A DNA stretch of 48,482 nucleotides. Origin: a virus (Duplodnaviria > Caudoviricetes). This document shows, one piece after another, positions 13,485-46,447 of this stretch; within the stretch, counting starts at the first letter, position 1; each line of letters starts with the position of its first letter. The notes under the pieces were generated by a model. That model did no database searches. It worked only from the letters and a program-made list of their open reading frames with translations, and was not told the DNA's origin. Both the position numbers and the translations under genes were made by a program. The stretch lies in IMG/VR virus record IMGVR_UViG_3300020043_005195, positions 1 to 48,482 of that record; one strand, 5' to 3'.

Positions 13485-16400
13485 ATGTCTATTTCTGAGG
13501 CCACCGACTCGATCGTAAAATATCTCGGCAACGATACTGCAGACACGTTCTCTATTACATTTCCAACTTACGACGACACTGATATCGAAGTTCAAGTTGA
13601 GGACGAAGCTACAGGGTTGCTCACTGATCTAGTGAAGGACACAGACTACACACTAGACAACGTAGGGATCCCAAACACTAATGCCTCACTCACACTAATC
13701 GATGCAGGTCAGGACTGGATATTTCCTACGACAAATAACCTCGCCGATGGTTACAGAATTATAATCAGGTTTTCAGAAGATCCATATCAGACTTCTAATA
13801 TGCAAAACCTTGGCCGCTTCTCAGCTTCAGTTTTTGAGATGGCTTTAGATAGAGCTACCATGTTCATTAAGGCACTATTCACAAAGCTAGGTAGAGCCCC
13901 ACTAATGAGCCACAAGGACATCGACGCGGGCTTTGATCCATCTATCCCTCAAATAACAGGGAACGGCACTAAGGTACTAAGAATCAACGCTACAGAGGAC
14001 GCTTGGGAGTTCGCTGCTCCAGCCGCTGGTCCTACAGGACCACAAGGTATTCAAGGCGATCCCGGTCCTACTGGGCCCACAGGTCCTACTGGTCCTACTG
14101 GTCCTACTGGTCCTACGGGCGCGACTGGTGCCACAGGTGCTACTGGTGCGACGGGTGCTACTGGTGCGACTGGGCCCACAGGTCCTGCCGGTCCTACGGG
14201 CGCGACGGGTGCCACAGGCGCGACTGGTCCGCAAGGTATTCAAGGAGATCCGGGCGAAGGCGTAGCGGCAGGCGGAACGGCAGGGCAAGTACTGTCGAAG
14301 ATTGATGGCGTCGACTATAATACACAGTGGGTAACTCCGACTGCCATAATCACAGATCACACTGCTTTATCTAACATCGGAACTTTCACCCACGCGCAGA
14401 TAGATACTCATATCGGAAGTACTTCGAATCCTCACTCGGTTACGGCAGATCAAATTCTGCCTACGCAGACCGGGAACAATGGAAAATATTTAACCACTGA
14501 CGGTTCTAACAGCTCATGGGCTACAGTATCTGGCGGAGGAGGAACACCGGGCGGATCAGATACACAAGTGCAGTTCAATGATGGAGGCTCTTTTGGCGGT
14601 GATGCTAATTTAGTTTTCGATAAGACGAATGACTCACTAAATATTCAAACTACTTTAAAGCAGCACCCAATACATGCTAACGCAGCCACTGGTCAGACAA
14701 TTAATAACGTGACCACGGCAAGCGTAAGTCAAACCACTGAGTCGCTTAACTCTTCCCCTACAGGCACCATTACTCTGATATCGGAGTTCGTAGCTCCTTC
14801 AGGTTCTGGGGCTACTCAAGATACAATGGGTTCTGGGTATAGTGCTTCAGGACAGGTTGTAGATTATAATATTTACGCTGTAATACTCGCAGACGGAAAT
14901 TATTATAAGTCTCAATATTTTGAGTCTATCTCGTTTACGGATACTTTAAATGATGCCAGCCCATTTGCTATAGAGCTTACGTTTCCTGTAGCCGCTTCGG
15001 AGCAGACACATTGGTATATAGAGAAGCAGGTGAACGGTGGCGGATATAACGACTCTATCCTTGTGGCAATTGGCGGAGGATACACTGATAGTGCTTGGTC
15101 AGGGACAGTATCGACAAACGCATGGCCTACATATTACACACTAACTTACACTACACCAACCGCTCCGAGTGCTGATTCTGCTCAAGAAATAAATATAGGG
15201 TTCGGAAACCTCACCGAGAACGGTACTACCTATTCATGGGAAATACGCTCAGCTTCTAACGTATCAAGCACATACTATTGTGAACAGACAGGGCTTACTG
15301 GAAACTCTTTCACAGATGCCAACGCTGCTAACACCTTTGACCTTCAGATTGATTGGACTCCGGGAGCAGGCGACGAACAAGTAATCAGAATATCTCTTGA
15401 TGGAGGCTCTAACTGGACTTACCACTTTGTAGGTTCAATGACAGGTCAGTTTGTTTATACAGGACAATCTAACGATTCCGGAGCTACTACAGCATGGTCT
15501 AATGATATCGCGTCTGTTCAAAAGCAATATGCTTTTAAATGTTATGGAGCTACATTGGCACCTAGTGGTAGCTCCTTAGTTTATAACCCAACCGCCTCTA
15601 CGTATTACGGAACGATAACTACTCCTAACATTGCTTATATATTTAGGCACGCTCTTGCAGGACTTCCGGGTGCAGGAGGAAAGATAATAGCGGACTACAA
15701 TACAGGAGTGTCTAACGGTAAAGTAGTCACCGCTGACTTTGTAGATGTGGGGTATAACACTTGGGCTGATGGTACAACCATAACTCCAGACCATTTCGGA
15801 TTCACTGGCACAGCGCAAGTCAGAGAGTATAAGCTTTATGGGTACTCAGGTTCTTTACTTATCTACTCTGCGACTGCTTACACTGTCTCTACTTCTGATA
15901 CAGGTGGGTATAAATATAACACCGTCTCATTCTCATTTCCTTCAGGTGTGACTACAGTGAAGATCACTAGAGGTATTAATGGAGCCGCTCACAATGCAGC
16001 TGCAATAATAAACTCTCCATCGACCTCTATTATCGACGATGCTTTATCTTCCTCTTGGGGGCAATCAACAACTGTATCTCCGACTACATCAGTTCCTACC
16101 ACAGTCAGATTTGACCATGCTAGACCTGCTATTGGACAAGCCACCGATAACCTACTTATCTGCGATACATCTGGCTCAGGTACTCGCTATCCTTCTATAG
16201 CTTTCTCGGTAGCAGCCAATACGACATCAGCTCATTCTTCTGCATTTTCAAGGATTGTGGCTAACTCATCTACAGGTAGACTACTGTTAGGAGCAGGTGG
16301 AATAGAAGGCTATAATAGCTCTATCCTAGGTACACAAATATTTAACCTTGGACACTCTAACGATTTTAACTTACAAAAATCTTCTACAGTACACGCGACT

Positions 16401-17306
16401 TTTTGGGCTAACGATGCGTCTAACCCCCTAGCCTACTTCTATAGTGCAGGCGACTCGAATCGCGGTACGGCTTACTTCGGTCAAAACTCAGTAGCCTTCG
16501 GTGGGACATCTAAGGTATGTATCGCACCAACGGCAGGAGGTACTACAGCCCTACACTTCAGAAGAACTTCTGGGTTCTCAGGTGACAATATTTTAATAGA
16601 TGAAGCAGGGTCTTTTAAAGCAGGCTGGGGCGCGGCTGGTAGAATGTTCTTAAACTCTACAGCTGTATCATCTACTACATATCTTTTGATCGGTGGACTA
16701 AGCTCAGGGTCACAGATGAGACTAGCCGCTTCGACTACTAGCCCATCTGTCGAAGGTGACATCTGGAACGACGGTACTCAGAAATGCTTAGCTGCTTACG
16801 TTGATGGAGTAAGGCAGTTTGACTCTAGAGTTTTATTTACTCAGACAGCTACAGGCACTGCAGCCAATACAGCATCAGAGACAACTATCTCTAGTACAGG
16901 CGTGGGAACGCTTACTCTTCCAGCTAACTTCTTTGTAGCTGGTAAGACGCTTAAGCTTAAAGCTTATGGATTCCATAGCTCAGTCTCTAACCCTAACTTA
17001 ACTATTAAAGTTAAACTAGGTTCTACTGTAATCTGTACTACAGGCGCTCACGCTGTTCACAACGGTACTAACCACTCAATTGAAATCGAGGCGATGATAA
17101 CTTGCAGGACTGCCGGAGTAAGTGGAACAGTATTTGGTCAGGGGATGGTTCACGATAACACTGACAATATCCCTATGGTGAATACTGCAGCTACTACACT
17201 AAATACAACTACTTCTCAGGCGCTAACTGTGACAGCTCAATGGAGTGCTGCGAGTGCGTCGAATACCATATCACTAACAAATTTAGCATTAGAGGTTTTA
17301 GCATGA
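13485..17306 (+). CDS. Tail fibre 1 with collagen-like segment
   Basis: 1273 aa; T7 gp17-like N-terminal adaptor ('[15 protein letters not shown]'), Gly-X-Y run, '[13 protein letters not shown]', Thr/Ser/Gly-rich beta domains. Confidence 0.85.
14028..14252 (+). repeat. Collagen-like Gly-X-Y repeat (25 triplets, 9-bp period)
   Basis: GPT/GAT repeats bracketed by two GPQGIQGDP units. Confidence 0.95.
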
Positions 17307-17566
17307 GTTGGATTAAATCAATTGCGAGAGAAGATAACGGAGCGGTCGCCACTTACTGGGACGTCATCAGTGTAGTTTACAATCACAGAGAGCAGCTCAG
17401 TAATCTAACTGTAGGTGGATGGGTTGACGAGGAAGCCTACGCTAGTAATCTACAGCCTCTAATTCTGAAAGAGTGGATTATACCTGCAGGATTAAATCCT
17501 CAATTAGCCGCTGGTGCAGTAGCTTTTGTGTCGGGGTATGCTCAGTCTCAGCCTGAGTTTCAATAG
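17303..17566 (+). CDS. Small protein after fibre 1, possible fibre chaperone or accessory
   Basis: Start moved to ATG 17303 (ATGA overlap with fibre stop, GAGG upstream); 87 aa. Confidence 0.55.
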
Positions 17567-17584
17567 TAAAAGAAAGGGGATTTT

Positions 17585-19267
17585 ATGGCAGTAGCACAGG
17601 GAACAGATTCAATAGTAAAATACACAGGTAATGGGAGCACTGATACTTTCGCTATCACTTTCCCTACCTTCGATGATACCGATATCGAGGTTCAGGTTGA
17701 GGAGATAGCCACCGGGCTTCTAACTGATCTGTCGCAGGGAACAGATTACACGCTTGACGACGTAGGCATCCCAAACACTAATGCCTCCTTGACTCTAGTC
17801 GATGCTAGTCAGGCTTGGGTTGATGGGGACGGGGATCTCATCACAGGGTACAGGCTCATAATTCGATTCTCAGAGGAAGCTTATCAGTCGACGAATCTTC
17901 AAAGTCTAGGGCGCTTCTCGGCTGCAAGTTTTGGAAATGCGCTGGACCGAACAGTTATGTTCATAAAGTCTTTACTCACTAAGCTCAACAGGATGCCAAT
18001 CATCAGCTACAAGGACATCGATGCGGGCTTTAATCCTGAACTCCCAGTCGTAGAGGCCAGTAAGTTTATAAAAATAAATAATGATGGAGATGGCTTTGAG
18101 TATGCGGAAGCCTCACTAAATAATATCGATAATGCTTCCATATCTAACACCGCTAATATAGCTAGGTCCAAGCTTGCCAGTGGAACTGCTAGTCACGTAT
18201 TGATAAATGACGGATCCGGAGTGATGAGTAGTGAAGCCACTCTCGCTAAATCTCGCGGAGGCGCAGGAGCCTCTATGACCTCAGTGACCTTCCCTTCTAC
18301 CGGGACTATAGCTACTCTTGCGGGAGTAGAGGCGCTCACCAACAAAGACATCGATGGAGGGACAGCCTCTAACACTAGCCGAATTACAGTGCCTAAAGCT
18401 GCCACCGCTACTCTGTCGGCGCTAACGAGAAAGCAGGGAACGATAGTTTACGATACTACGACGAATAGATTGTTTGCTGATAACGGTTCTAGTCTTCAGT
18501 CATTAAACGGTCTCAATGTAACTTCAAAGACTACGACGTATGTCGCTACTGTGGCTGACGACGTTATCCTGTGTGACGGTAGCGGCGGATCCTTCGTGGT
18601 CACTTTACCTCCTTGCTCTGGGCTGGCTGGAAAAGTGTTCATGTTTAAGCGTACTGATACGACGTTCACTAACTCCGTAACCATAGCGGCGGATAGTGAA
18701 TCAATCGACGGATTCGGATATAAACTTCTATACACTCAGAACGAGACAATTCGCATTGTGTGTGATGGCCTTAATTGGTATGTACTCGATAGATACTTCT
18801 ACGGTCCATGGCAGACAGGTGGAGTGCTGACAATTACGGGCACCACCACTAATCCGACTAAAGGCACGACGTCAAGGGATTCATCTTGGTGGAGGAGAGT
18901 CGGCGATTCAATTGAGCTTAGAATGGAATACCTACAGACTGCAGCGGGAGCCAACGGATCAGGGGACTATCTAATCGCTTTACCTACAGGTCTACAAATA
19001 GCTTTAAGTAGAGTGGCGGAATACTCGGCAGTAGAGGGAGCAGGAGTATGGCTAGTTCCTAACTGTGTAGGGACTTGTTTACTAGGGAACGGAACAGCCA
19101 ATGCAGTCGGTGGAGTGTTTGTACATGATGCCACTACGATCAGGCTGGCCACTGTCAATACGGCCCCGGGCGCGGGAGTTCTGGGCTCAGCCTACTTCTC
19201 TCTTGGAACTACGAACATATCTATATCGGCAAATATGACATTACCTATATCAGGATGGGACGCATGA
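17585..19267 (+). CDS. Tail fibre 2
   Basis: 560 aa; N-terminal ~165 aa paralogous to fibre 1; 'VTLPPCSGLAGKVFMFKRTD' and 'WRRVGDSIELR' fibre-type motifs. Confidence 0.85.
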   Translation: MAVAQGTDSIVKYTGNGSTDTFAITFPTFDDTDIEVQVEEIATGLLTDLSQGTDYTLDDVGIPNTNASLTLVDASQAWVDGDGDLITGYRLIIRFSEEAYQSTNLQSLGRFSAASFGNALDRTVMFIKSLLTKLNRMPIISYKDIDAGFNPELPVVEASKFIKINNDGDGFEYAEASLNNIDNASISNTANIARSKLASGTASHVLINDGSGVMSSEATLAKSRGGAGASMTSVTFPSTGTIATLAGVEALTNKDIDGGTASNTSRITVPKAATATLSALTRKQGTIVYDTTTNRLFADNGSSLQSLNGLNVTSKTTTYVATVADDVILCDGSGGSFVVTLPPCSGLAGKVFMFKRTDTTFTNSVTIAADSESIDGFGYKLLYTQNETIRIVCDGLNWYVLDRYFYGPWQTGGVLTITGTTTNPTKGTTSRDSSWWRRVGDSIELRMEYLQTAAGANGSGDYLIALPTGLQIALSRVAEYSAVEGAGVWLVPNCVGTCLLGNGTANAVGGVFVHDATTIRLATVNTAPGAGVLGSAYFSLGTTNISISANMTLPISGWDA

Positions 19268-20048: not shown

Positions 20049-20208
20049 TGTCGATAAACCGGGGTTCGAGTACGATTACTGCCTCAAGTACAAGTGGATC
20101 GGGGACGAGTGTAAAGAATGGGTAACGGAGTTCTTCGACTTCACTGATGAAAAGACTCGCCTTCATCTTAAGGCGCTTGGGTTCAAGCTGATAGTTGATA
20201 AGCCCTAA
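19930..20208 (+). CDS. Lipoprotein, putative o-spanin (Rz1-like)
   Basis: AAGGAG SD; signal peptide with lipobox-like 'ILS-C'; two further Cys; last gene of the lysis block. Confidence 0.55.
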   Translation: MKSITKIALIWLASTILILSCSLSAKSLVPKLELRRLRISVDKPGFEYDYCLKYKWIGDECKEWVTEFFDFTDEKTRLHLKALGFKLIVDKP

Positions 20209-20219
20209 TTTTACATATC

Positions 20220-20534
20220 CCATAACATCCTTTTATGGTGAGGGCGTGGTGAGATTATTTACCGATCGCCGCCCTCATGCTAACCAGAGGAGTAGTCGCC
20301 GTAGTTCGACTGCCGCATCCCACCCAACGTATGCATCACATAGACGGAACTCTTGCCACAAATCCTTTTGTGGTAGTTAGTTTAGGAAACCCAGAAAGGA
20401 TAAAACAAGTCTCCCGTAACTAAATTATAAGTATGAATTTCGTTGAGTTCAAGATAATATGCGTCCGAGTGGATCTGTCAGATTCTTACTGTCTATCCTT
20501 ATCGTCCAGCCGGTAAAGCTGGCAGATTCATTCG
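20220..20534 (+). ncRNA. Candidate structured non-coding RNA
   Basis: Dense hairpins, including a 16-bp helix 20466-20481/20519-20534; non-Watson-Crick positions are G-U on the + strand. Confidence 0.55.
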
Positions 20535-22607
20535 CTAGATAAAGGTTGACAAGCCCCCGAGTTCTCTCTTCTCCCATATCCTAGTTCCGTTAGACGAATC
20601 AAAAGCTTCCTCTAAGAAGCAGCCTCTAAGTGCTTTCTCGATTCTCTCGTAGGTTCTCTGATTTAATCCTTTGGCAAGGTAGCCTTGAGAGATTAGGAAT
20701 TGGTAGATCTCGTCGAGTCGCCACTTAGTTTTCTCACTGCTACTAACTAGCGATAGGACGGGAGAGGTTAAAGGCTCTACAGTGTTCTTCTCGTTTACTA
20801 TTCTGTCATGCTCATCGGAAGGCACCTCATAGAAGCTCTCTCCATTTTTAAATCTAACTATCCCTTCAGCGAATAGTTGATCGCGAACAGCGCCTATTGC
20901 CGTAGTGTTAATCACGACATTCGAAGGAACTACTATGGGCCAGAATCTTCTACCGCCCATTCCACCCTCAAGATATTTTGAGTCGTTAGTCGTACCGATT
21001 AGAATGAAACCGCGTTGACACTTCTTAGCTTTTCTCGCATACAGTCCGCGTATCATGTCCGTACTGTTAGAGATAAAACCTTTCACTAGATTGGCGTCTT
21101 GCCCCTTTAAACCGATTAGTTCGGGAAGCTCTACCACTATTGACTGATGCATCTTTCGAAGCTCATCAAGATCTTTAAAAGCCGCACTGTTAGTAGGAGA
21201 GTATGAGTACTCCCCTCCTATAGCTTGGACCAGCGTCGACTTCCTTACCCCCTCACTCCCCTCGAAGACTATCACGTGATCGAACTTAGTTCCGGGGTGT
21301 AGCCCACGTGCAGCCAGAGCTATCCACATATTTTTAGACACTGCCCTTGTGTACTCAGTGAAAGGTATTCCGACGTAGTCCCTCAGGAACGTATCGATCC
21401 TAGGTACCCCATCCCACACTAACTCTTTAAGATATTTTTTATGCGGGTCAATCTGTCTCACGGCCATGAGTACATCAAGGGCTCCGCCGATGGTGGCCTT
21501 CTTAACTCGCTGAAGTCCTAGCCCGTGATTTACTGACTGGATCATGGGGCTCAAGATATTGGCCAGCTCAGCGTCAGAATAGTGTACGCCTTTGAATACA
21601 TACATATCTATTCTTACGTCATGGAATAATTCTTCCAGAGAGAACATTGCGCCTAAAAGTGCAGCGACGTTAGTTTCAGATGCGATGATAGATACTTTGC
21701 CAGCATTGTCGAAGGCCACGGGAACAGCGGATCGATCAAAGATTTCCTGAATAGAGAAGGGAGTCGCAGTATTGGTAGCGCCTTCTCTCATCATAGACTC
21801 TTTAATGATGGCGAATATTGTACCCGGTCCGACACTTCCATACTTCTCAGCGCGAGCTACGATATCCTGAGCTTTCATTTCATCGCCCGGGATATAGTTT
21901 CTATTGTGGGTCCACATCTCCACTAACTCGTCGAGTAATACAGGATCATCGATGCCCGCTTTCAGAGCGAACAGCCCGTCTCTCCACTCGGAGTAGCTAG
22001 GCTTACCGTTTATCTGGAACCACTCGATGCGAGCTTTCAGATCTTTAATTTGGGCTTCTGAGTAGGGACTGTGTAGATTAACCAGAGCGTGCGCAGGAGT
22101 ATCGAATGTTTTCACATCATCAGGTCGTCCCTTTGCGTGCATTAGTGCGTCGAGTAGTGCTTCGGGAGCTTCAGCTATTTGCTGAACATTTCCCCACTCG
22201 ATAGAGTAACCTCGCGAAGGCGGAGCAGCTACCCATCCGTTATAAACTACGTCCACTCCGGGAGCTAGTCGCGCAGGTGGGCTGAAGAATCTCTCGTCGA
22301 TAGATAAGGGTAGATAGTAATAGAAGTGAAAGCCTCCGGATCTAGTTCGCACAGTGTAGGTAGGTGCAAGCCCAGCCTCCATGCAGAAATTAGTCCACCA
22401 CTCGCGACCATCACTCTTATGACCTTCGCCATTGGAGCCCGCAGCGTCCACATCTATGATTACAAGTCGGTTAGGTTTTGCAGGAATCCCAATAGCGGGA
22501 AGCTGCTTTTCGATTAGATCTTTATAGGAGAAGGTCTCTACAGTTTTCCCCGAGTAGTCATGGGATATCTTTGTACCTTCTACGAATCGTATTGCTTTTA
22601 AATCCAT
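20535..22607 (-). CDS. Primase-polymerase (Prim-Pol) fused to PriCT-like linker and VirE/VapE-like P-loop helicase
   Basis: 'IIDVD', 'RTRSGGFHFYY' AEP motifs; 'SYSEWRDGLFALK'; 'WDGVPRI', 'GSEGVRKST', 'IGTTND', 'GRRFWPI'. Confidence 0.9.
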   Translation of the reverse strand: MDLKAIRFVEGTKISHDYSGKTVETFSYKDLIEKQLPAIGIPAKPNRLVIIDVDAAGSNGEGHKSDGREWWTNFCMEAGLAPTYTVRTRSGGFHFYYYLPLSIDERFFSPPARLAPGVDVVYNGWVAAPPSRGYSIEWGNVQQIAEAPEALLDALMHAKGRPDDVKTFDTPAHALVNLHSPYSEAQIKDLKARIEWFQINGKPSYSEWRDGLFALKAGIDDPVLLDELVEMWTHNRNYIPGDEMKAQDIVARAEKYGSVGPGTIFAIIKESMMREGATNTATPFSIQEIFDRSAVPVAFDNAGKVSIIASETNVAALLGAMFSLEELFHDVRIDMYVFKGVHYSDAELANILSPMIQSVNHGLGLQRVKKATIGGALDVLMAVRQIDPHKKYLKELVWDGVPRIDTFLRDYVGIPFTEYTRAVSKNMWIALAARGLHPGTKFDHVIVFEGSEGVRKSTLVQAIGGEYSYSPTNSAAFKDLDELRKMHQSIVVELPELIGLKGQDANLVKGFISNSTDMIRGLYARKAKKCQRGFILIGTTNDSKYLEGGMGGRRFWPIVVPSNVVINTTAIGAVRDQLFAEGIVRFKNGESFYEVPSDEHDRIVNEKNTVEPLTSPVLSLVSSSEKTKWRLDEIYQFLISQGYLAKGLNQRTYERIEKALRGCFLEEAFDSSNGTRIWEKRELGGLSTFI

Positions 22608-23101: not shown

Positions 23102-23324
23102 CGTTCTCTCCTTGATAAATTTCAATAATACTTTTGCCTAAAAATTTCTCGATCCATAAGAGGTGATGGGCGTTGAATCTTCGTCCTGCTAAAATACCTT
23201 TAATAGTACCTAGCTGCTCCTTCGCAATTCTTGATAGATCGTGGATAGATATGCTCTGATTCCTGAGTTCATTTGTCAAAAGCGTTGCAATAAGTTTATA
23301 AAACTTTTCATGTCTTTTATTCAT
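23046..23324 (-). CDS. XRE-like helix-turn-helix protein
   Basis: 'ISIHDLSRIAKEQLGTIKGILAGRR' HTH pattern; ATG overlaps the polymerase stop. Confidence 0.6.
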   Translation of the reverse strand: MNKRHEKFYKLIATLLTNELRNQSISIHDLSRIAKEQLGTIKGILAGRRFNAHHLLWIEKFLGKSIIEIYQGENGGNEKTSGGKDIQLSDFI

Positions 23325-26059
23325 TTTAGATATCTCCTACCTGTATCTACTGATGCACCGATTCTCATATCGGTACACCATGATGGATTAATACACATTA
23401 AACGCTCAAATTCAGCCTCTCGCCCCTTGACTGCTTGGGCCCACATTTCATCATGGATTAAGGTCAGAATGTCAAAGCCTGCCTGTTCCAAGCGGTAGAT
23501 AGCAGGGACTAGAATGTCCCTTGCAGTCGCCGATGTTACGTGCTCGGTTAGTAGCCCGCCGTATAGCTTCTTTCTAAATACTGCACCACCGTCGTCAGCT
23601 AAATAGGTTAGCCCTTCATGATCGATCTTGACATCGTGGTAAAATAGTTCCCCTCCACTCGGCAATCGGATCCTAACTCCGACAGCTCCGGGCTTAGGGC
23701 ACGACATTCGCATCACGTGAAGCTTGTTGTTGCATAGCTGAGTCGTAGTCCCGTACTGTGCGGCTGCCTTCATTGCGTACTCTAAGTTAGTCCATAGGTC
23801 AGTGATCTGGGGGTATTTATTTCTATAGGCATACACCGCTTGCTTGGCTAAGTTCTCAGTGATTCGAAGCCCTATCTTTTTAAAGACATCGACTCTGAAT
23901 TTGGCATGGCCCATTCCGTAACCACAATTATGGACTAGCCCTGATGAAGTCAAATACCTGTTCAGGTTCCCGCAGTCTTTTATGTCGTACACTGGGACGA
24001 TTTTTGTTATTAGTCGATTGGCTGACCACTCGAAGGTTTCCGGCCTCATAGTGTCCATCATTATTAATCCGGTCAATCGTGAAGCCCCATTGGTCAAACC
24101 CATCCAACGTAATGATATGTTCCAAAAATTCGCGAAAGGATTTGAATCGTACCTCAATTCCTCTACCGCCGTAGCGTGACCAATCTTTGTCCATGGTATT
24201 TTCACACCGTTTTCTTGCATTATGGTAGCAAGCGTTCCATCTTTTTCTAATCCTTGGGTCAGGAACCAAGTCGCTGCAAGCATCGGGTTTCGTATTTGTT
24301 CTGGCCCTAAGAGAGTTCGCGCAGTTAATACAAGTTCTGGCTCTGCCTCGCCAGAGTTTATCCACGCGAACAGACGCTTCAGTCCCGCATACGCAGCGGA
24401 CAGGGACATGACGTTCGACACCACGTTTGAACTCGTCTCCCACAACAGTCCATCCTCCAAAAGTTTGTCCCAGTATAGGGCTTTCGTATCCTCGCTTAGA
24501 GCCATTTCCACGGCGGTTAGCCACCCTTGGTTCGACAGTATTAAGTGATCCGGAGTCAATTCTATATTCAGTCTCTCGATCCGCATAACGCTCTTCATAC
24601 CGTTTACTGATAGTCCTCCGTGGCGGACAAACTTCTCCCCGTCCCATATTAAATCCTCCGATAATATATCCTCTATCGCGATAAGCCCGCGCTCAGTAAA
24701 CACTCTTGTCCATCCTGCCACGCACCCCAATGCCGCCGACTTACCAAGCTGTCTTTCATCGGAGTCTTTCTTTACTGTGCTAACGTCTATGCTGTAGATC
24801 GTAGCTGCCATATCTTCGTACCATCCGTCGGGTATAGGACCTAAGCCTACAAGCCAGAAGAGAACTGTAGGTTCAATACGAGACCAGTCACCACAGTAAA
24901 ATTCTAGCCCGTGATCAGGGATCCATATACGTCGAAGTAGGTTCTTTATAAAACCTAAAGGATCTTGCAGCGATGGGCGCTTGATCTTAAGTGGGGTAGT
25001 TATGTCGTCTGCGTTTAGATCGAAGTCAATCTTGTCGGGCTTCTTTCTATCCACTCGTGGGAAGTTTTGAATCTGAACTCCGCGACCTGCCCAGCGTTTA
25101 GTCTGAGCATAATGGTAGGCGAGGAGGTTATAGATTCTCCCGTTGTACATAATAGATTTAGCTGTATCTACTTTAGCTAAGCTTGTGGATCCTGCGAGGT
25201 CCTTAATCTCTAGTGCCTCTTTAGCAAAGGTAGGAATTTCAGGGCGATCATCAAGCATCATTTCCCTGATAGTATCAGCCTGCATATTTTCAATCCAAGG
25301 GTAGTACTGGCTGAACCACTCCTTCGTTTTAGTCGGAGAGTTTAATTTAACCTTGCCACCTACAAGTCGATCGAACTTAGCTGTGAGTGTAGGCATCTCT
25401 TCTTTTATAATTTTATCCATCTCATTGATAAGATCTGTATCAACTCTAATACCTCGAAGGTTTCTCCTGAAGGTCCACTCCCAAGCGAAACGCTCAGGTG
25501 CAGGGAGGGCAGGGCACAGATAGTATATATCTCGAAGCAGTCTAGTGTCGGTGCGCCCGTAGATCTCGAACTGTTCCCACTCATTCTCGTCAAGCTCAAT
25601 GAACTGTCCGGTTCTAGGGTTAGGCTTACACTGCTTGAGCATTAATTTTCTGCCCTCTTTATCTTTGTTGTATGGCATACCTAAGATATCAGCGGCACGT
25701 CCAAGACTTGCGCCGACTCTATAGTGGCAGGTGAGTGCCATGTTATCTTCTATGTTCTCAATCTTGGGATTCTCAATACAGCCAATGACTTTATTTTTGA
25801 AAGGGATCGTCCATATCAAGTAATCGAAGCCTATATTGTGCGCGATAAAATTATATTTGTGTGGGTTCATGGCGACTTCAATTAAGTCTTCATGAATATG
25901 CTGACCTTTGCGCCAAGCTTTCACGATACCAGTGCGACCGAAACACCAAGTTAGTAAGGTGGCTTCCGTCGAAGGGTGAAGGGCATAATTGATTGAGTCT
26001 ACCTCAGTAAGGTCAGCATGACTGCGGGTCTCAAAGTCGAAAAAGAAATCTATCTTCAT
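23321..26059 (-). CDS. Family A DNA polymerase containing an intein (912-aa precursor, 646 aa after splicing)
   Basis: ExoI 'FDFET', ExoII 'AHNIGFD', 'TKRWAG..VQIQNFP', motif A 'DWSRIE', motif B 'RQLGKSAALG/CGYG', motif C 'IHDE'. Confidence 0.95.
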   Translation of the reverse strand: MKIDFFFDFETRSHADLTEVDSINYALHPSTEATLLTWCFGRTGIVKAWRKGQHIHEDLIEVAMNPHKYNFIAHNIGFDYLIWTIPFKNKVIGCIENPKIENIEDNMALTCHYRVGASLGRAADILGMPYNKDKEGRKLMLKQCKPNPRTGQFIELDENEWEQFEIYGRTDTRLLRDIYYLCPALPAPERFAWEWTFRRNLRGIRVDTDLINEMDKIIKEEMPTLTAKFDRLVGGKVKLNSPTKTKEWFSQYYPWIENMQADTIREMMLDDRPEIPTFAKEALEIKDLAGSTSLAKVDTAKSIMYNGRIYNLLAYHYAQTKRWAGRGVQIQNFPRVDRKKPDKIDFDLNADDITTPLKIKRPSLQDPLGFIKNLLRRIWIPDHGLEFYCGDWSRIEPTVLFWLVGLGPIPDGWYEDMAATIYSIDVSTVKKDSDERQLGKSAALGCVAGWTRVFTERGLIAIEDILSEDLIWDGEKFVRHGGLSVNGMKSVMRIERLNIELTPDHLILSNQGWLTAVEMALSEDTKALYWDKLLEDGLLWETSSNVVSNVMSLSAAYAGLKRLFAWINSGEAEPELVLTARTLLGPEQIRNPMLAATWFLTQGLEKDGTLATIMQENGVKIPWTKIGHATAVEELRYDSNPFANFWNISLRWMGLTNGASRLTGLIMMDTMRPETFEWSANRLITKIVPVYDIKDCGNLNRYLTSSGLVHNCGYGMGHAKFRVDVFKKIGLRITENLAKQAVYAYRNKYPQITDLWTNLEYAMKAAAQYGTTTQLCNNKLHVMRMSCPKPGAVGVRIRLPSGGELFYHDVKIDHEGLTYLADDGGAVFRKKLYGGLLTEHVTSATARDILVPAIYRLEQAGFDILTLIHDEMWAQAVKGREAEFERLMCINPSWCTDMRIGASVDTGRRYLK
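23927..24724 (-). mobile_element. Intein (266 aa, residues 446-711) in polymerase motif B
   Basis: Block A 'CVAGWTRV', block B 'LTPDHLI', block F 'VYDI', block G 'LVHN' followed by +1 Cys; removal restores 'KSAALGCGYGMG'. Confidence 0.93.
23928..24647 (-). CDS. HNH-type homing endonuclease nested in the -1 frame of the intein
   Basis: 'GQTFGGWTV', 'RCVCG..TCINC', 'YGGRGI', 'IDRINNDGHYEAGNLR...NNKNR'; GGAGG 7 nt before the ATG. Confidence 0.88.
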   Translation of the reverse strand: MGRGEVCPPRRTISKRYEERYADRETEYRIDSGSLNTVEPRVANRRGNGSKRGYESPILGQTFGGWTVVGDEFKRGVERHVPVRCVCGTEASVRVDKLWRGRARTCINCANSLRARTNTKPDACSDLVPDPRIRKRWNACYHNARKRCENTMDKDWSRYGGRGIEVRFKSFREFLEHIITLDGFDQWGFTIDRINNDGHYEAGNLRVVSQSTNNKNRPSVRHKRLREPEQVFDFIRASP

Positions 26060-27556: not shown

Positions 27557-28813
27557 TTATTCAATTGTTACAGTTTCTTCAAAAGCAGCAAAAGCAGACA
27601 ATATCTCTTGCACTTTTTCGTCTAACACTATTAATTCTTTCGATACAGGTTTTACAGTAAGCACGTCGCATTTATTTTTACCGACTAATTTCTCTACTTC
27701 AGTGATGGTGATCAGTTTCTGCACCATCCTTACAGGTTCTACCTTAGGAAAAGTTTCTTTAATTCTTTTCGCCATATCTTCAATGTCATCATTAACCCAG
27801 CGTCTGCGACCTTCTTTATCTCGAAGAACTACGCCCTGTAAAGCCTCTCCCTGCGCCAGTCTAAAAGTCAATTCGCTCTTAGCATCTTCCGCCATCTTTG
27901 ACAGTAGCGGAGCAAGACTTATAATTTTTATCAATGCTTTATCTCTCTTAGCTTCTTTCTCTGGATCCACTAATGCAGAGTCAGTAGGTCGAACAGCTTC
28001 CATGGTTTTAAAAAACTCATTAAAGTTTTGATTGGCCATATCTACAGCTTGCTGTTTTATCATAGGACATTTAAGTGCAGGGTCTTTAGTTCTTTTGGCA
28101 GGACACCAGAAGCAGTGAGATCCGCCGACGGGTTCCTCATCTAGCTTGCTTCTCTTTATCGCAGTAACCACTTCATCTTCAAGAACTTCAAGGTCAGCTA
28201 TTGTATAGTCGTCGACCTTAGGGATCACTGCCATTCTAGGCTGGTGAACTACGGCAAAGAACATATAGTCTTCAGGAATATTTTCTAAGTTTCTCATCAC
28301 TCCAAGTGCATACTGTTTTAACTGAACACTGCCTTTCTTAACTTCTTTGCCTTTACCGTATTTAAAATCTAAAACTACAGTTCCAAGGGTTCCTATGATA
28401 AGGAAGTCAGCGGTCCCAAAACATTCATCCTCTAAAAATATAGGGATCCCCACTTCTTGACCGAACCAAATAACCTCCCCGAGTATGTCGTCGCGCTTTA
28501 ACCACGCAGTAACTACGTCAAGGAATTGATGGGCACAGTCTAGCATCTCTTCACCTTGATCAGGTAAATGCGCGAGCTGCATATTTATGTGAGGAGGAAA
28601 ATCAATTCCAAAATAGTCACGACGAAATACTGCTTCGCAAACTGAGTGAGCTAGAACTCCCTCCTTAGCGTAGGAAGAGGTCTCGTTCGGTATGTCTGCT
28701 GATAATTTAATACTGGCAGGGCAAGCCATCCATCTCTCGCTTGCACTTGGAGAGTAAACGCTGTGCTCTGATGGACGAACATAGTCCAGTAAAGCTTTCT
28801 TAATTGTAATCAT
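27557..28813 (-). CDS. DUF2800 Cas4-like PD-(D/E)XK exonuclease
   Basis: 'HSVYSPSASERWMACP', 'GTADF', 'DFKYGKG', 'QLKQYALG', 'HCFWCPAK'. Confidence 0.88.
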   Translation of the reverse strand: MITIKKALLDYVRPSEHSVYSPSASERWMACPASIKLSADIPNETSSYAKEGVLAHSVCEAVFRRDYFGIDFPPHINMQLAHLPDQGEEMLDCAHQFLDVVTAWLKRDDILGEVIWFGQEVGIPIFLEDECFGTADFLIIGTLGTVVLDFKYGKGKEVKKGSVQLKQYALGVMRNLENIPEDYMFFAVVHQPRMAVIPKVDDYTIADLEVLEDEVVTAIKRSKLDEEPVGGSHCFWCPAKRTKDPALKCPMIKQQAVDMANQNFNEFFKTMEAVRPTDSALVDPEKEAKRDKALIKIISLAPLLSKMAEDAKSELTFRLAQGEALQGVVLRDKEGRRRWVNDDIEDMAKRIKETFPKVEPVRMVQKLITITEVEKLVGKNKCDVLTVKPVSKELIVLDEKVQEILSAFAAFEETVTIE

Positions 28814-28839
28814 TTGTCACCTATCCTTATCGTTCGACG

Positions 28840-33474: not shown

Positions 33475-33705
33475 CTAGTTCTGAAGCTTATGCGCCCACA
33501 GAGCGCGTGCTTGATTAATGTCGTCGACTGTTAGCATAGGGGAGAACTCGAACTTAAATCCCTGCTCCTCTTCTAGCTCAGCCTTAGTGCATCTGACGCT
33601 CTTAAACGAGTATAGAAAGCAGTCGTAGGTTTTATCCCTGCCATGTCTAGGCTTACATTTCTTTTTTGCTACCCTTATCGTGGGTATTCCTGAATTTAAA
33701 ATCAT
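33475..33705 (-). CDS. Hypothetical protein
   Basis: 76 aa, first gene after the promoter at 33733-33761. Confidence 0.7.
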   Translation of the reverse strand: MILNSGIPTIRVAKKKCKPRHGRDKTYDCFLYSFKSVRCTKAELEEEQGFKFEFSPMLTVDDINQARALWAHKLQN

Positions 33706-33732
33706 AGTGTCACCTATCCTTATCGTTCTAAA

Positions 33733-34925: not shown

Positions 34926-35483
34926 TTAAAATTCTAAAATGTCGTGCTCAATTAGTAGCGCCAAGGCTTTTTTATATTTAGCACGCCAAAAAGCTGCACT
35001 ATCACTATGCAAGTTTTCAATTTTAGCCTCGGGCTGGCTGTTATTAGTGAGGTAGATATCTTTGACAGTGTATCCATCCGGCAAGGCTAAGGGCTTCAGT
35101 GTTCTACTGCTAAGATCTTTAAGCTTTAAAAACCCATGTACTTTATAGTTTGAAATATTAGTCATTTTGCAAATGTCAGCGATAGAAAATCCCAGCTTAC
35201 GCTTGTTAATGATCTCTTCTTTCTGGCTATCGGAGAGATTAAAGCTATTGGAAAATGCTCGGCTAACTGCTCTCAATTGACTGCGCTGCTTTTTAGCCTT
35301 TCGCTTTTTACGTAGCAAATTGCCGACTTGATGTACAGTAGCGCCAATTTCCTGCGCTATATCGATGTAATATTTTCCCTCCCTGCTTAGCCTTTTAGCC
35401 TCTATTTTTTGAGTGCGACTCAAAGGCTTGGAGTAAGTTCGTTTAATGTTCTTGTCTGCTGTGTTCTCGTTTAATTCTTGCAT
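34926..35483 (-). CDS. Tandem helix-turn-helix protein
   Basis: Two HTH-like units: 'GKYYIDIAQEIGATVHQV' and 'GFSIADICKMTNISNYKV'. Confidence 0.65.
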   Translation of the reverse strand: MQELNENTADKNIKRTYSKPLSRTQKIEAKRLSREGKYYIDIAQEIGATVHQVGNLLRKKRKAKKQRSQLRAVSRAFSNSFNLSDSQKEEIINKRKLGFSIADICKMTNISNYKVHGFLKLKDLSSRTLKPLALPDGYTVKDIYLTNNSQPEAKIENLHSDSAAFWRAKYKKALALLIEHDILEF

Positions 35484-37800: not shown

Positions 37801-38403
37801 TTAACCTCTATTCGCTGAAACTAAATCAGCCTTGTCGAAGGTCACTCCAAAATCCGCATCATCTTTGCCTGATTTAAGAGGCATGATAATCATGAAATTA
37901 TCGGCTTCGAGTACCTCGAAGGTGATAGGGCTTAAGCTTCCGTTAAGCTTAACCACGTATTCAGTGCCATCAGCTAAAGGCTTCAAGAAACTGGCATTAA
38001 TTCGGAACATTAAATTTTCATGCGGTAAGTATTCATTAGAGACTTTGCCCGATTCGTAAAAATAAGCGCGTGGTGGCTTCTGACTTGATCGGTGGGGTTG
38101 ATAGTGGTGGGGTTCAATGCGATAGCTTATTTTAAGTTTATAGCTGGTCGGTATAATAGATGCGACTCGGGGATATTCGCGCTTTACGGTGCATAGAGTT
38201 TTAGGGTTAATAATTAGATCGGCTAAGCTTTGATCATATAGGCACTGCGCGTGCGCTAATATATGCCCATCCGTCGATATAAGCGCCTTGCGCTCCGATA
38301 GGTGGATATAGCCGGCTAAATTCGGTCGCGTTTCGTCCTTCGATATACAATATTGTACTATCTCCAGCATTTTTTCGTAGGGTTTTTTCTGTTTTTTAGC
38401 CAT
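37801..38403 (-). CDS. Truncated DNA polymerase III beta-clamp (DnaN)-like protein
   Basis: 'ISKDETRPNLAG', 'ISTDGHILA', 'EYPRVASIIP', 'INASFL', 'IIMPLK' match beta-clamp domain II/III motifs; ATG 38403 after AGGAG; 200 aa. Confidence 0.7.
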   Translation of the reverse strand: MAKKQKKPYEKMLEIVQYCISKDETRPNLAGYIHLSERKALISTDGHILAHAQCLYDQSLADLIINPKTLCTVKREYPRVASIIPTSYKLKISYRIEPHHYQPHRSSQKPPRAYFYESGKVSNEYLPHENLMFRINASFLKPLADGTEYVVKLNGSLSPITFEVLEADNFMIIMPLKSGKDDADFGVTFDKADLVSANRG

Positions 38404-38502
38404 TTTTTCGTCTCCTATATAGTGGGCAATAGAGCCCGTTAAGTTATTGATTTTACGTTGTAGCGTATATTGCACTGGAATTCGTGTTCCACAAGCATGG
38501 AC

Positions 38503-38645: not shown

Positions 38646-39328
38646 AAGCATAGTCTATTTATAACAAATTAGGTGAGTTATAGGTGCGCAGGTTCCAGGT
38701 GCAGTAATACGAATTTTAGAAATGTTTGGAAATCAGTACATGCATCTTTGCATAGGCTAGCTACACTATACGACTTTGCTGTTTTTCCACAAAAGTGCCT
38801 ATATATCGTAGTACGCTGCGACGCTCAGCATAGCACACTATACAATTGCATAGCGTGCTATCGTACATAGCGGCATATCGTACTAATAGCAGCTAAAAGT
38901 ACTTAATGCGTATTATCATATTGCGCTATACTCTCCACTTCGCGACTCTATGCCTAGCCTCGCATATACTCGGCGGCGCGGAGAGTTTAACTCCGACTCT
39001 CCGCGTCCAAGCTATTGGGTATTTTTGGCGCTCCTAAATAGCCTTTAAAACGCTTCGAACACTCCAGCCCTGCCCTACGTATACCCTACCGCTCTAAAAG
39101 CTCTCAAATCGAATCCTCGTAAGCCTGCATTGATCCCTGCCACTTAGATCATTGGAGAGTTTAAGGCTTACATGACTTAGCAGTCTACGGGCTTAGATCA
39201 ATAGACTATAGGCTATAGCTGTGCAGGTGCGTTAGAAGCAGCCGCGTCATCGCGCGTGCGTGCGCGTGGTATAGTCATAGGCATATAGACTATAGGTGCG
39301 TGGTGGGTGGGGTAGCAGGTATAGACTA

Positions 39329-39383
39329 GTAGGGTACGCGCGTGAGGTATAGACTGGTAGGGTACGCGCGTGAGGTATAGACT
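39329..39383 (+). repeat. 27-bp tandem repeat x2 (period 28)
   Basis: GTAGGGTACGCGCGTGAGGTATAGACT at 39329 and 39357. Confidence 0.9.
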
Positions 39384-39458: not shown

Positions 39459-39553
39459 TAAAACTTAAAACCACTACTGCATTGTGTCATAGTATACAGG
39501 TAATAGCTGTAAAACTTAAAACCACTACTGCATTGTGTCATAGTATACAGGTA
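39459..39553 (+). repeat. 44-bp direct repeat x2 (period 51)
   Basis: TAAAACTTAAAACCACTACTGCATTGTGTCATAGTATACAGGTA at 39459 and 39510. Confidence 0.92.
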
Positions 39554-45798: not shown

Positions 45799-46378
45799 TA
45801 CACCTGCACCGGCTACGCCTCCAGTAGAGGAAAGCGTACTTGCAAAAGTAGATGATCCTGCAGTAGTTCCTCCAGTGGTAGAGCCTGAAGAATATGATCT
45901 AGAACTCAGTGCTGACTCTCCACTCTCAGAAGAGGATCTAGATAACGTAGCTAAGATTGCTGAAGATAGAGGGCTCACAAAAGAGCAAGCCACTAATCTT
46001 TTAAAAAATATGGAGAAAGCATATTCAACTGGAGCTGCGAAGGCGCTAGAAACTTCAAGACTTGAAAACGCAGAGATGAAAAAACAGCTAATTTCTGATC
46101 CACTTTTTAATTCAAAAGAAAAAATAGTTGAGAGTTTGGGAAAAATAAACAATGTTTTAGTTAAATTCGGAGGCGAAAATAGGGCTGAACTTATCAAGCT
46201 TTTTAAGGGTCCAGCGGGCAACAACCTTCACCTAGCTAAACTATTGATATCAATCGCAAATGCGGGCGCTGACGATACCGTGATAACCCCTAAAAATCCG
46301 GGCAATACCATCGTCGAAAGTGACCGTACAAAACAGCTTCGAGAAACCTACCCATCATTTTTTGAGAAAAAAGATTGA
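45662..46378 (+). CDS. Capsid scaffolding protein
   Basis: Pro/Ala/Thr-rich N-terminus, 'PEEYDL', 'GLTKEQA', C-terminal 'YPSFF'; precedes major capsid gene. Confidence 0.8.
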   Translation: MTTANTAPAEITPAPAAVATPAPATPSTSTDTSTPVAPSTSTPSSDTPAPATPPVEESVLAKVDDPAVVPPVVEPEEYDLELSADSPLSEEDLDNVAKIAEDRGLTKEQATNLLKNMEKAYSTGAAKALETSRLENAEMKKQLISDPLFNSKEKIVESLGKINNVLVKFGGENRAELIKLFKGPAGNNLHLAKLLISIANAGADDTVITPKNPGNTIVESDRTKQLRETYPSFFEKKD

Positions 46379-46447
46379 CACAGAAATATATCTCGACGAC
46401 GATATAATTAATTGTAATTAATACCCAATTTAACGGGAAGGTAAAAT

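Follow-up and report, generated by a model that had tools for sequence, protein, structure and literature searches.

The window, which is the whole 48,482-nt stretch of DNA analysed here, carries end repeats and represents a complete virus record of 48.5 kb; its PHROGs and Pfam matches identify it as a podophage. According to those matches, the + strand carries the structural and lysis genes, from 39713 round to 20208, and the - strand an early/replication arm, from 38475 to 20535, which encodes a helicase, a DUF2800 exonuclease, an SSB, a family A polymerase, a resolvase and a Prim-Pol/VapE primase. The arms converge on a 326-nt gap that contains the hairpin described below, and the last gene of the replication arm, the Prim-Pol/VapE primase-helicase gene (20535..22607, -), runs toward that hairpin. 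The conserved predicted target of the hairpin is the DUF2800/PD-(D/E)XK exonuclease gene (27557..28813, -), and the window's second predicted target is a 76-aa ORF (33475..33705, -) that matches no known family. Among the 56 ORFs scanned in the window, no match to an integrase, repressor or antirepressor was found, and the hairpin-bearing clade is apparently lytic. Scans of the window found no tRNA or tmRNA. A host search found no primase relative in the genome collection and capsid relatives of only 34-45% identity, and no close cultured phage was found.

Several other features of the genome stand out. The first gene of the early arm (37801-38475, -) resembles a sliding clamp (DNA polymerase III beta), with weak matches. 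The DNA polymerase gene (23321-26059, -) carries an insertion of ~265 aa (residues about 446-711) that is absent from all aligned relatives; it begins with a Cys and ends with His-Asn followed by a Cys, and from such hallmarks we take it to be a likely intein. Two tandem duplications between the early and late arms (28 nt at 39317-39372 and 44 nt at 39459-39553) mark a possible origin or packaging region. Two tail-fibre genes (13485-19267, +) have a common 244-nt N-terminal repeat, and in the first a 9-nt repeat of collagen-like type spans 14019-14237. In eight genomes the major capsid start is preceded, at 36-44 nt, by a TTGAC-17-weak -10 site (about 46375-46447, +, in the window), which makes this site a candidate conserved late promoter that may need an activator.

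The candidate small RNA is a single 67-nt hairpin on the + strand (20467..20533) in which a basal stem of 15 bp and an inner stem lead up to an apical loop of 13 nt. Its predicted 5' end is 6 nt past a -10 element, and its stem stops 1 nt before the primase stop codon. The folding z-score was -2.86 for the + strand versus -0.10 for the - strand, values that are inflated because the limits of the hairpin were set by hand. The candidate promoter (20433..20460, +) consists of a -10 TAATAT (20455-20460), a 16-nt spacer and a weak -35 ATGAAT; because this -35 is weak, transcripts that run on from the lysis genes may supply part of the RNA in the window. No U-tract terminator follows the hairpin in the window or its relatives and neither side has a U-tract, which led us to reject an intrinsic terminator as its identity. 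Elsewhere on the - strand, a terminator-like hairpin with a U-tract lies in the last primase codons (20605-20620). Rfam searches of the window and seven relative loci gave nothing at gathering score; hits at E up to 10, which included weak ones to lncRNA and snoRNA models, were judged to be chance. The 3' arm of the hairpin contains a conserved motif, UCUUCCGAAAG.

The loop is connected to the early genes by the 13-mer ACGATAAGGATAG, which has exactly three exact copies in the window, all on the - strand (20493-20505, 28821-28833 and 33714-33726), and near-copies at 33669-33681 (one mismatch) and 44251 (two mismatches). The chance expectation for one exact 13-mer is 0.0009 per strand, and five matches at two or fewer mismatches were reached in 0 of 100 shuffles. 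The first-pass annotation had placed this sequence in the terminal loop, which holds for 11 of its 13 nt: the predicted mostly unpaired loop spans 20495-20507, and positions 20493-94 are weakly paired. The same annotation had described complementarity to two - strand leaders that begins at the seventh base past the -10 hexamer, the predicted +1, and at both sites the match is exact. Its extension into the Shine-Dalgarno (SD) sequence can involve three G-U pairs (20490-20492) rather than the two first counted, which gives a seed (20490..20505, +) of 16 contiguous pairs, 13 Watson-Crick and three G-U, with either leader. The predicted duplex covers the SD, and predicted net binding after opening both RNAs is -5.1 and -6.4 kcal/mol for the two leaders. 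For loop pairing, the exonuclease and 76-aa ORF starts rank 1 and 2 of the 56 called starts; for the whole hairpin, the best contiguous duplex is with a + strand stretch inside the primase gene (22303), not with a leader. As previously noted, no promoter-like site lies directly ahead of the 20505 copy on the - strand. The primase stop is only 30 nt upstream of this sense copy, and therefore read-through could place it in a 3' UTR.

Both target leaders consist of a common 21-nt repeat that runs up to the start codon and contains a split SD (TAAGGA..GGTGA). Leader 1 (28815..28835, -) precedes the exonuclease start, with a promoter-like TTGACA-17-TAATAT (28868-28840, -) within the helicase 3' end, and leader 2 (33708..33728, -) precedes the 76-aa ORF, with a promoter-like TTGACA-17-TAGATT (33761-33733, -) ahead of it. 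The message of the 76-aa ORF has a second seed site 45 nt downstream of the first (33669..33681, -; codons 9-13), where 12 of 13 nt match and the changed base gives a G-U pair. These targets lie 8.3 and 13.2 kb from the hairpin, and the exact match to each is 13 nt. The exact 20-nt leader occurred in no other viral contig searched, and TTGAC is conserved before the exonuclease gene in nine of the 11 tested genomes. Within the exonuclease gene itself, a perfect TTGACA-16-TATAAT (27898-27925, +) lies antisense to the gene.

A separate structured element (20202..20380, +) lies upstream of the hairpin. Three - strand loops that display AGGA had been reported, and all three exist (ATCCT at 20227, 20362 and 20495), two of them in this separate element. 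The element is absent from L001, L002, G001 and G002, and as judged from sequence it is not required for the hairpin. It also occurs in L094, L095, L096, L097, L099, L100 and L151, just 5' of the hairpin promoter. In the window and at these loci it combines an AGGAG motif with a terminal hairpin (CYTTGC..loop..GYAGTTRG) whose + strand fold includes G-U pairs. A 5' CCC stretch co-varies with a GGG hairpin loop in G004, G005, G006, G007 and G009 (GCCC/GGGC, ACCCC/GGGGT, GACCC/GGGTC and GCCCC/GGGGC), which suggests that the element forms a pseudoknot; it has no Rfam match. The only RNA-run record in the hairpin region is a 133-nt insert (20255-20387) on this element. Between the element and the hairpin, 20394-20402 (+) is a sense copy, AAAGGATAA, which could pair with an ATCCTT loop in a longer transcript. 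In L093 (10881-11210), L098 (12367-12696), L139 (2893-3222) and L145 (3547-3876), dissimilar structured non-coding stretches fill the same slot before the hairpin promoter, and the arm junction seems to be a small-RNA hot spot.

Primase and exonuclease searches yielded 18 distinct relatives (41-53% primase identity) with sequence past the primase stop, 13 of them records that were read whole. In 14 of the 18, the primase end is closely followed by a single hairpin of 60-77 nt, and three scans found no recognisable hairpin in G009, G012 and the fragments G013 and L147. None was found in the distant L015, which is excluded from the counts. The comparison covers 41-53% primase identity, the two closest exonuclease relatives (66% and 57%) not being placed on DNA, and a scan for the promoter-plus-loop pattern gave 46 stretches and no new clade member. 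With the window included, all 15 loci have one hairpin with one apical loop, and the stem ends 1-7 nt from the convergent stop codon in nine of ten same-orientation genomes. Stem covariation is based on the four alignable copies: among their 13 basal pairs, 0 of 52 cells were broken and eight pairs showed two-sided changes, and their apical 30 nt vary at one position only. Folding z was better on the promoter strand in 13 of 15 hairpins (with hand-set limits, which inflate z), and the reverse strand was equally or more stable by energy in six of 15. In a FastTree tree with weak inner support, the window groups with G003 and G012; the window, G003 and G007, whose loops are distinct, each sit on a separate long branch.

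A related strain contig is consistent with constraint on the hairpin. This one contig (depth 4.1) has 11 changes in the 72 spacer nt at 20392-20463, none in the promoter hexamers, and two in the 67 hairpin nt (20489 and 20490; Fisher p 0.018), with the loop and basal stem untouched. By pairing rules, the latter two changes preserve the inner stem, one C-G pair becoming U-G and one U-G pair becoming C-G, and they add two Watson-Crick pairs with the leader, counted against the window's own leader. In RNA run X15, three short records were found in 6.6 kb, none on the hairpin; such contigs cannot show strand or absence.

In relatives, the hairpin has its own predicted sigma-70-type promoter: 13 of 14 relatives have a TTGnnn-17/18-TAnnnT sequence at a constant spacing ahead of the stem, and L145 and the window lack the TTG. 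G011 and L139 carry the cassette inverted onto the primase strand, and the order is still promoter, then anti-leader loop. The choice of the + strand as the likely RNA strand is thus supported, since the relatives' promoter precedes the anti-leader strand in these two inverted cassettes as well. The description of the RNA as late is not supported as a property of the clade, because the hairpin has its own predicted promoter in relatives and, in G011 and L139, shares a strand with the replication genes.

The first-pass annotation had proposed loop/leader covariation in relatives as a check on the antisense reading, and the loop and exonuclease leader do co-vary across 11 genomes. The longest exact matches between a loop and its own exonuclease leader were ACGATAAGGATAG in the window, TGAGGGGATGA in G002, GAGGGGATGA in G008, TGAGGGGAT in G001, GAGGAGACA in G007, CTTTGAGGG in G010, TGAGGGAAT in G011, CTGAGGGA in G004, GGTGACA in G003 and GAGGGGA in G006; the G005 loop had no match at the RBS of its exonuclease leader, which ranked 31 of 57. 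Duplexes with the phage's own leader averaged -17.0 versus -12.7 kcal/mol for other phages' leaders (permutation p 3e-4), and the longest exact match averaged 8.9 versus 6.0 nt. This advantage persisted without the window (p 0.003) and in four subsets that keep one of three near-identical loops (p 0.0003-0.008), although the permutations remove relatedness only partly and their null is not tree-aware. Among the 51-69 starts of each genome, exonuclease leaders ranked 1, 2, 2, 6, 2, 31, 2, 2, 2, 3 and 9 with their own loop (1-3 in eight of 11). Taken together, these comparisons support the view that loop-leader pairing is under selection.

The match is confined to a few starts. Resolvase leaders matched their own loops (p 0.007), and helicase, SSB, polymerase and primase leaders showed no own-loop match (p 0.24-0.71). 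The first annotation had inferred a shut-off of the replication and middle operons; control of whole operons is not supported, as only the first promoter-proximal cistrons match, along with the resolvase start in several relatives. The 16 - strand starts behind a TTGAC promoter, nine of which are exonuclease starts, had a median rank percentile of 0.05 versus 0.52 for the 587 starts that lack one, by a rule fixed after the data were seen, and of the seven non-exonuclease starts in this group, four fall in the top tenth and two near the bottom. Eight TTGAC-led capsid leaders had no loop match (percentiles 0.13-0.95). Specificity is incomplete: only three of 11 loops pair best with the leader of their own phage, and several loops pair better with the leader of another phage, because most loops share a GAGGG core. 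Some top partners are structural-arm + strand genes (G007, G006, G004 and G005), and in just three of 11 genomes does pairing with the replication arm as a whole exceed that with the structural arm. An 8-nt match between the L139 loop and the L137 exonuclease leader was left uncounted, as these are separate contigs.

We weighed four other explanations for the hairpin and its loop match. The loop could act as a generic anti-SD RNA that mimics the tail of 16S rRNA and lowers the output of many messages, including those of the host, with the match to the leaders reflecting the strong RBS that each phage favours. That reading, which we regard as rather unlikely, would account for the C/U-rich loops that are complementary to a purine-rich RBS core in 14 of 15 hairpins (the L145 loop is not anti-SD-like), for their good pairing with other phages' leaders and for the structural-arm matches. 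However, the loops have only 4-7 nt in common with the consensus 16S tail, and a generic anti-SD sequence ranks the exonuclease leader at 4-44, where the own loop mostly ranks it at 1-3. Furthermore, the match in the window reaches +1, past the SD, and the own-phage advantage is present in the replication arm (p 1e-4) and absent from the structural arm (p 0.18). We consider it quite improbable that the - strand is the functional one, with A(N)GGA loops, carried either by a small RNA or by the 3' end of the replication message, serving as a decoy that titrates CsrA/RsmA or a phage leader-binding repressor. Decoy RNAs of the CsrB/RsmY type display several GGA motifs in hairpin loops of the transcribed strand, and two upstream hairpins of the window do show AAGGAU(G) in - strand loops, with TTGAAC-17-TATAAT at 20452-20424 (-) and a terminator-like site at 20175-20158 (-); the leaders also carry AGGA over the SD, and a common protein site would likewise give loop-leader co-variation. 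Yet the three GGA-bearing loops of the window are not repeated in relatives, where extra upstream copies of the loop core number one in G002, within a gene, and none in the other 13. The main hairpin of the window folds poorly on the - strand, the complement of the G003 loop lacks GGA, and a fixed host protein needs no site that varies between phages. The conserved promoter reads the anti-leader strand even where the cassette is inverted, which disfavours the decoy reading, including the CsrA/RsmA alternative that the first-pass annotation had based on the AGGA loops.

A role as a boundary element between the convergent units, as a 3'-end stabiliser or stop signal, or a promoter that produces a longer antisense RNA into the primase 3' end, would make the loop match a side effect. 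We find this very unlikely as a full account: the position of the stem next to the convergent stop codon, the folding on both strands in many relatives and an RNA that has no closing terminator are in its favour, but both sides lack a U-tract, the loop is most conserved while the stem varies, and loop-leader co-variation is left unexplained. A boundary role may be a second role of the hairpin rather than a rival. We give the least credence, and very little, to the 13-mer as a DNA operator bound by a phage repressor just past +1 at three promoters, including that of the RNA gene itself. In its favour, each of the three copies closely follows a promoter-like site, and an HTH-type gene, below the Pfam cut-off, is present at 34926-35483. 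Against it, the 13-mer lacks symmetry, overlaps the SD, has the opposite orientation with respect to the third promoter, and is found in every case at the tip of a stem that G-U pairs help to keep.

We therefore return to antisense control, for which known systems offer partial parallels. IS10 RNA-OUT folds as a single stem-loop whose loop pairs first with the mRNA 5' end. The hairpin described here, at 60-77 nt and with predicted pairing over the initiation region, resembles it. RNA-OUT, an antisense RNA of ~69 nt, has its own promoter, pairs with the translation-initiation region and blocks ribosome binding, and its control increases with copy number; it is encoded opposite its one target, with a 35-nt perfect match (PMC5006887). 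In contrast, the present hairpin lies 8-13 kb from several predicted targets with exact matches of 7-13 nt. Its promoter-like site, present in 13 of 14 relatives, has a weak -35 in the window, and its ends are predicted. The P4 CI RNA likewise uses a loop to pair in trans with RBSs on messages of its own phage. C4 of P1/P7 is described as folding into three stem-loops, with two pairing loops named a' and b'. RNase P releases it from a precursor, and it acts in the immunity of temperate phages (PMC5320573). The likeness to C4 and CI drawn by the first-pass annotation holds at the functional level: these are phage RNAs of similar size with loops that pair in trans (here by prediction) at RBSs of the phage's own messages, and their specificity varies between phages. 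It does not extend to the structure or setting, as the element has one hairpin and one loop rather than three stem-loops, no Rfam match, its own predicted promoter 6 nt before the stem in most relatives, replication-arm genes as targets and, in the window, no accompanying integrase, repressor or antirepressor match. By sequence, predicted fold and position, the hairpin is a member of neither C4/CI nor RNA-OUT.

Two further comparisons concern the leaders and the mode of action. Cluster K mycobacteriophages carry SAS, an asymmetric 13-bp extended RBS repeated in 11-19 copies before non-structural genes and conserved past the needs of 16S pairing; the authors left an RNA or protein binder open, and the portion of the article available names none (PMC3203893). 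The leaders described here are likewise a repeated extended RBS before non-structural genes, but differ in sequence, number 2-4 per genome (two among the 56 called starts of the window) and have a matching hairpin. PreS of lambda and VpdS are phage sRNAs that base-pair in trans in the lytic cycle of temperate phages, and PreS works via Hfq, mostly on host messages (bioRxiv 10.1101/2024.10.31.621285). The candidate RNA differs from them in lacking a U-tail terminator and in being predicted to target leaders of the phage that encodes it. A literature search that covered few subscription papers found no description of this hairpin element; the part of the PMC10690425 supplements searched gave no match, and the element may be among the 10,006 candidates of that study. 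The candidate cassette is stand-alone, promoter-led and invertible.

Based on these observations, we consider it probable that the hairpin of 67 nt (20467-20533) constitutes an antisense RNA that stands alone, acts in trans, resembles IS10 RNA-OUT in build and blocks the RBS of promoter-proximal early genes. Host sigma-70 RNA polymerase would transcribe it from the promoter 6 nt before the stem, and its paired 5' end and long basal stem would stabilise the RNA, which would therefore accumulate as infection proceeds and genomes multiply. The open loop would then capture the unstructured 5' end of a new message, and the helix would spread through the weak inner stem and cover the SD sequence. 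The covered ribosome-binding site would lower translation of a few promoter-proximal early messages, with the exonuclease gene as the conserved target and the resolvase start and small early genes as targets in some phages. Direct control by the RNA would reach first cistrons only. Because action in trans would scale with genome number, by analogy with multicopy inhibition by IS10, the RNA would probably serve as a timer, or as a gene-dose brake that limits nucleases and early proteins, during replication.

A broader and more doubtful reading, which we put forward tentatively, is that each phage of the clade marks its promoter-proximal early messages with a private extended RBS code that is read in trans by a freely reprogrammable one-loop RNA. 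Such a protein-free gene-dose timer would shut early and nuclease translation as genomes multiply and could discriminate co-infecting relatives. If true, this reading would supply the missing partner of SAS-like repeats in other phages. Most known cases in which a phage controls its own messages by antisense RNA in trans come from the immunity systems of temperate phages. Here, in an apparently lytic clade, the loop tracks the phage's own early leaders across about 50% protein divergence. If the proposed mechanism holds, the element would be an RNA-only timing device for the replication phase; it would then allow a direct test of the purpose of repeated start-associated sequences and make natural loop-leader pairs available as small, protein-free translation switches.
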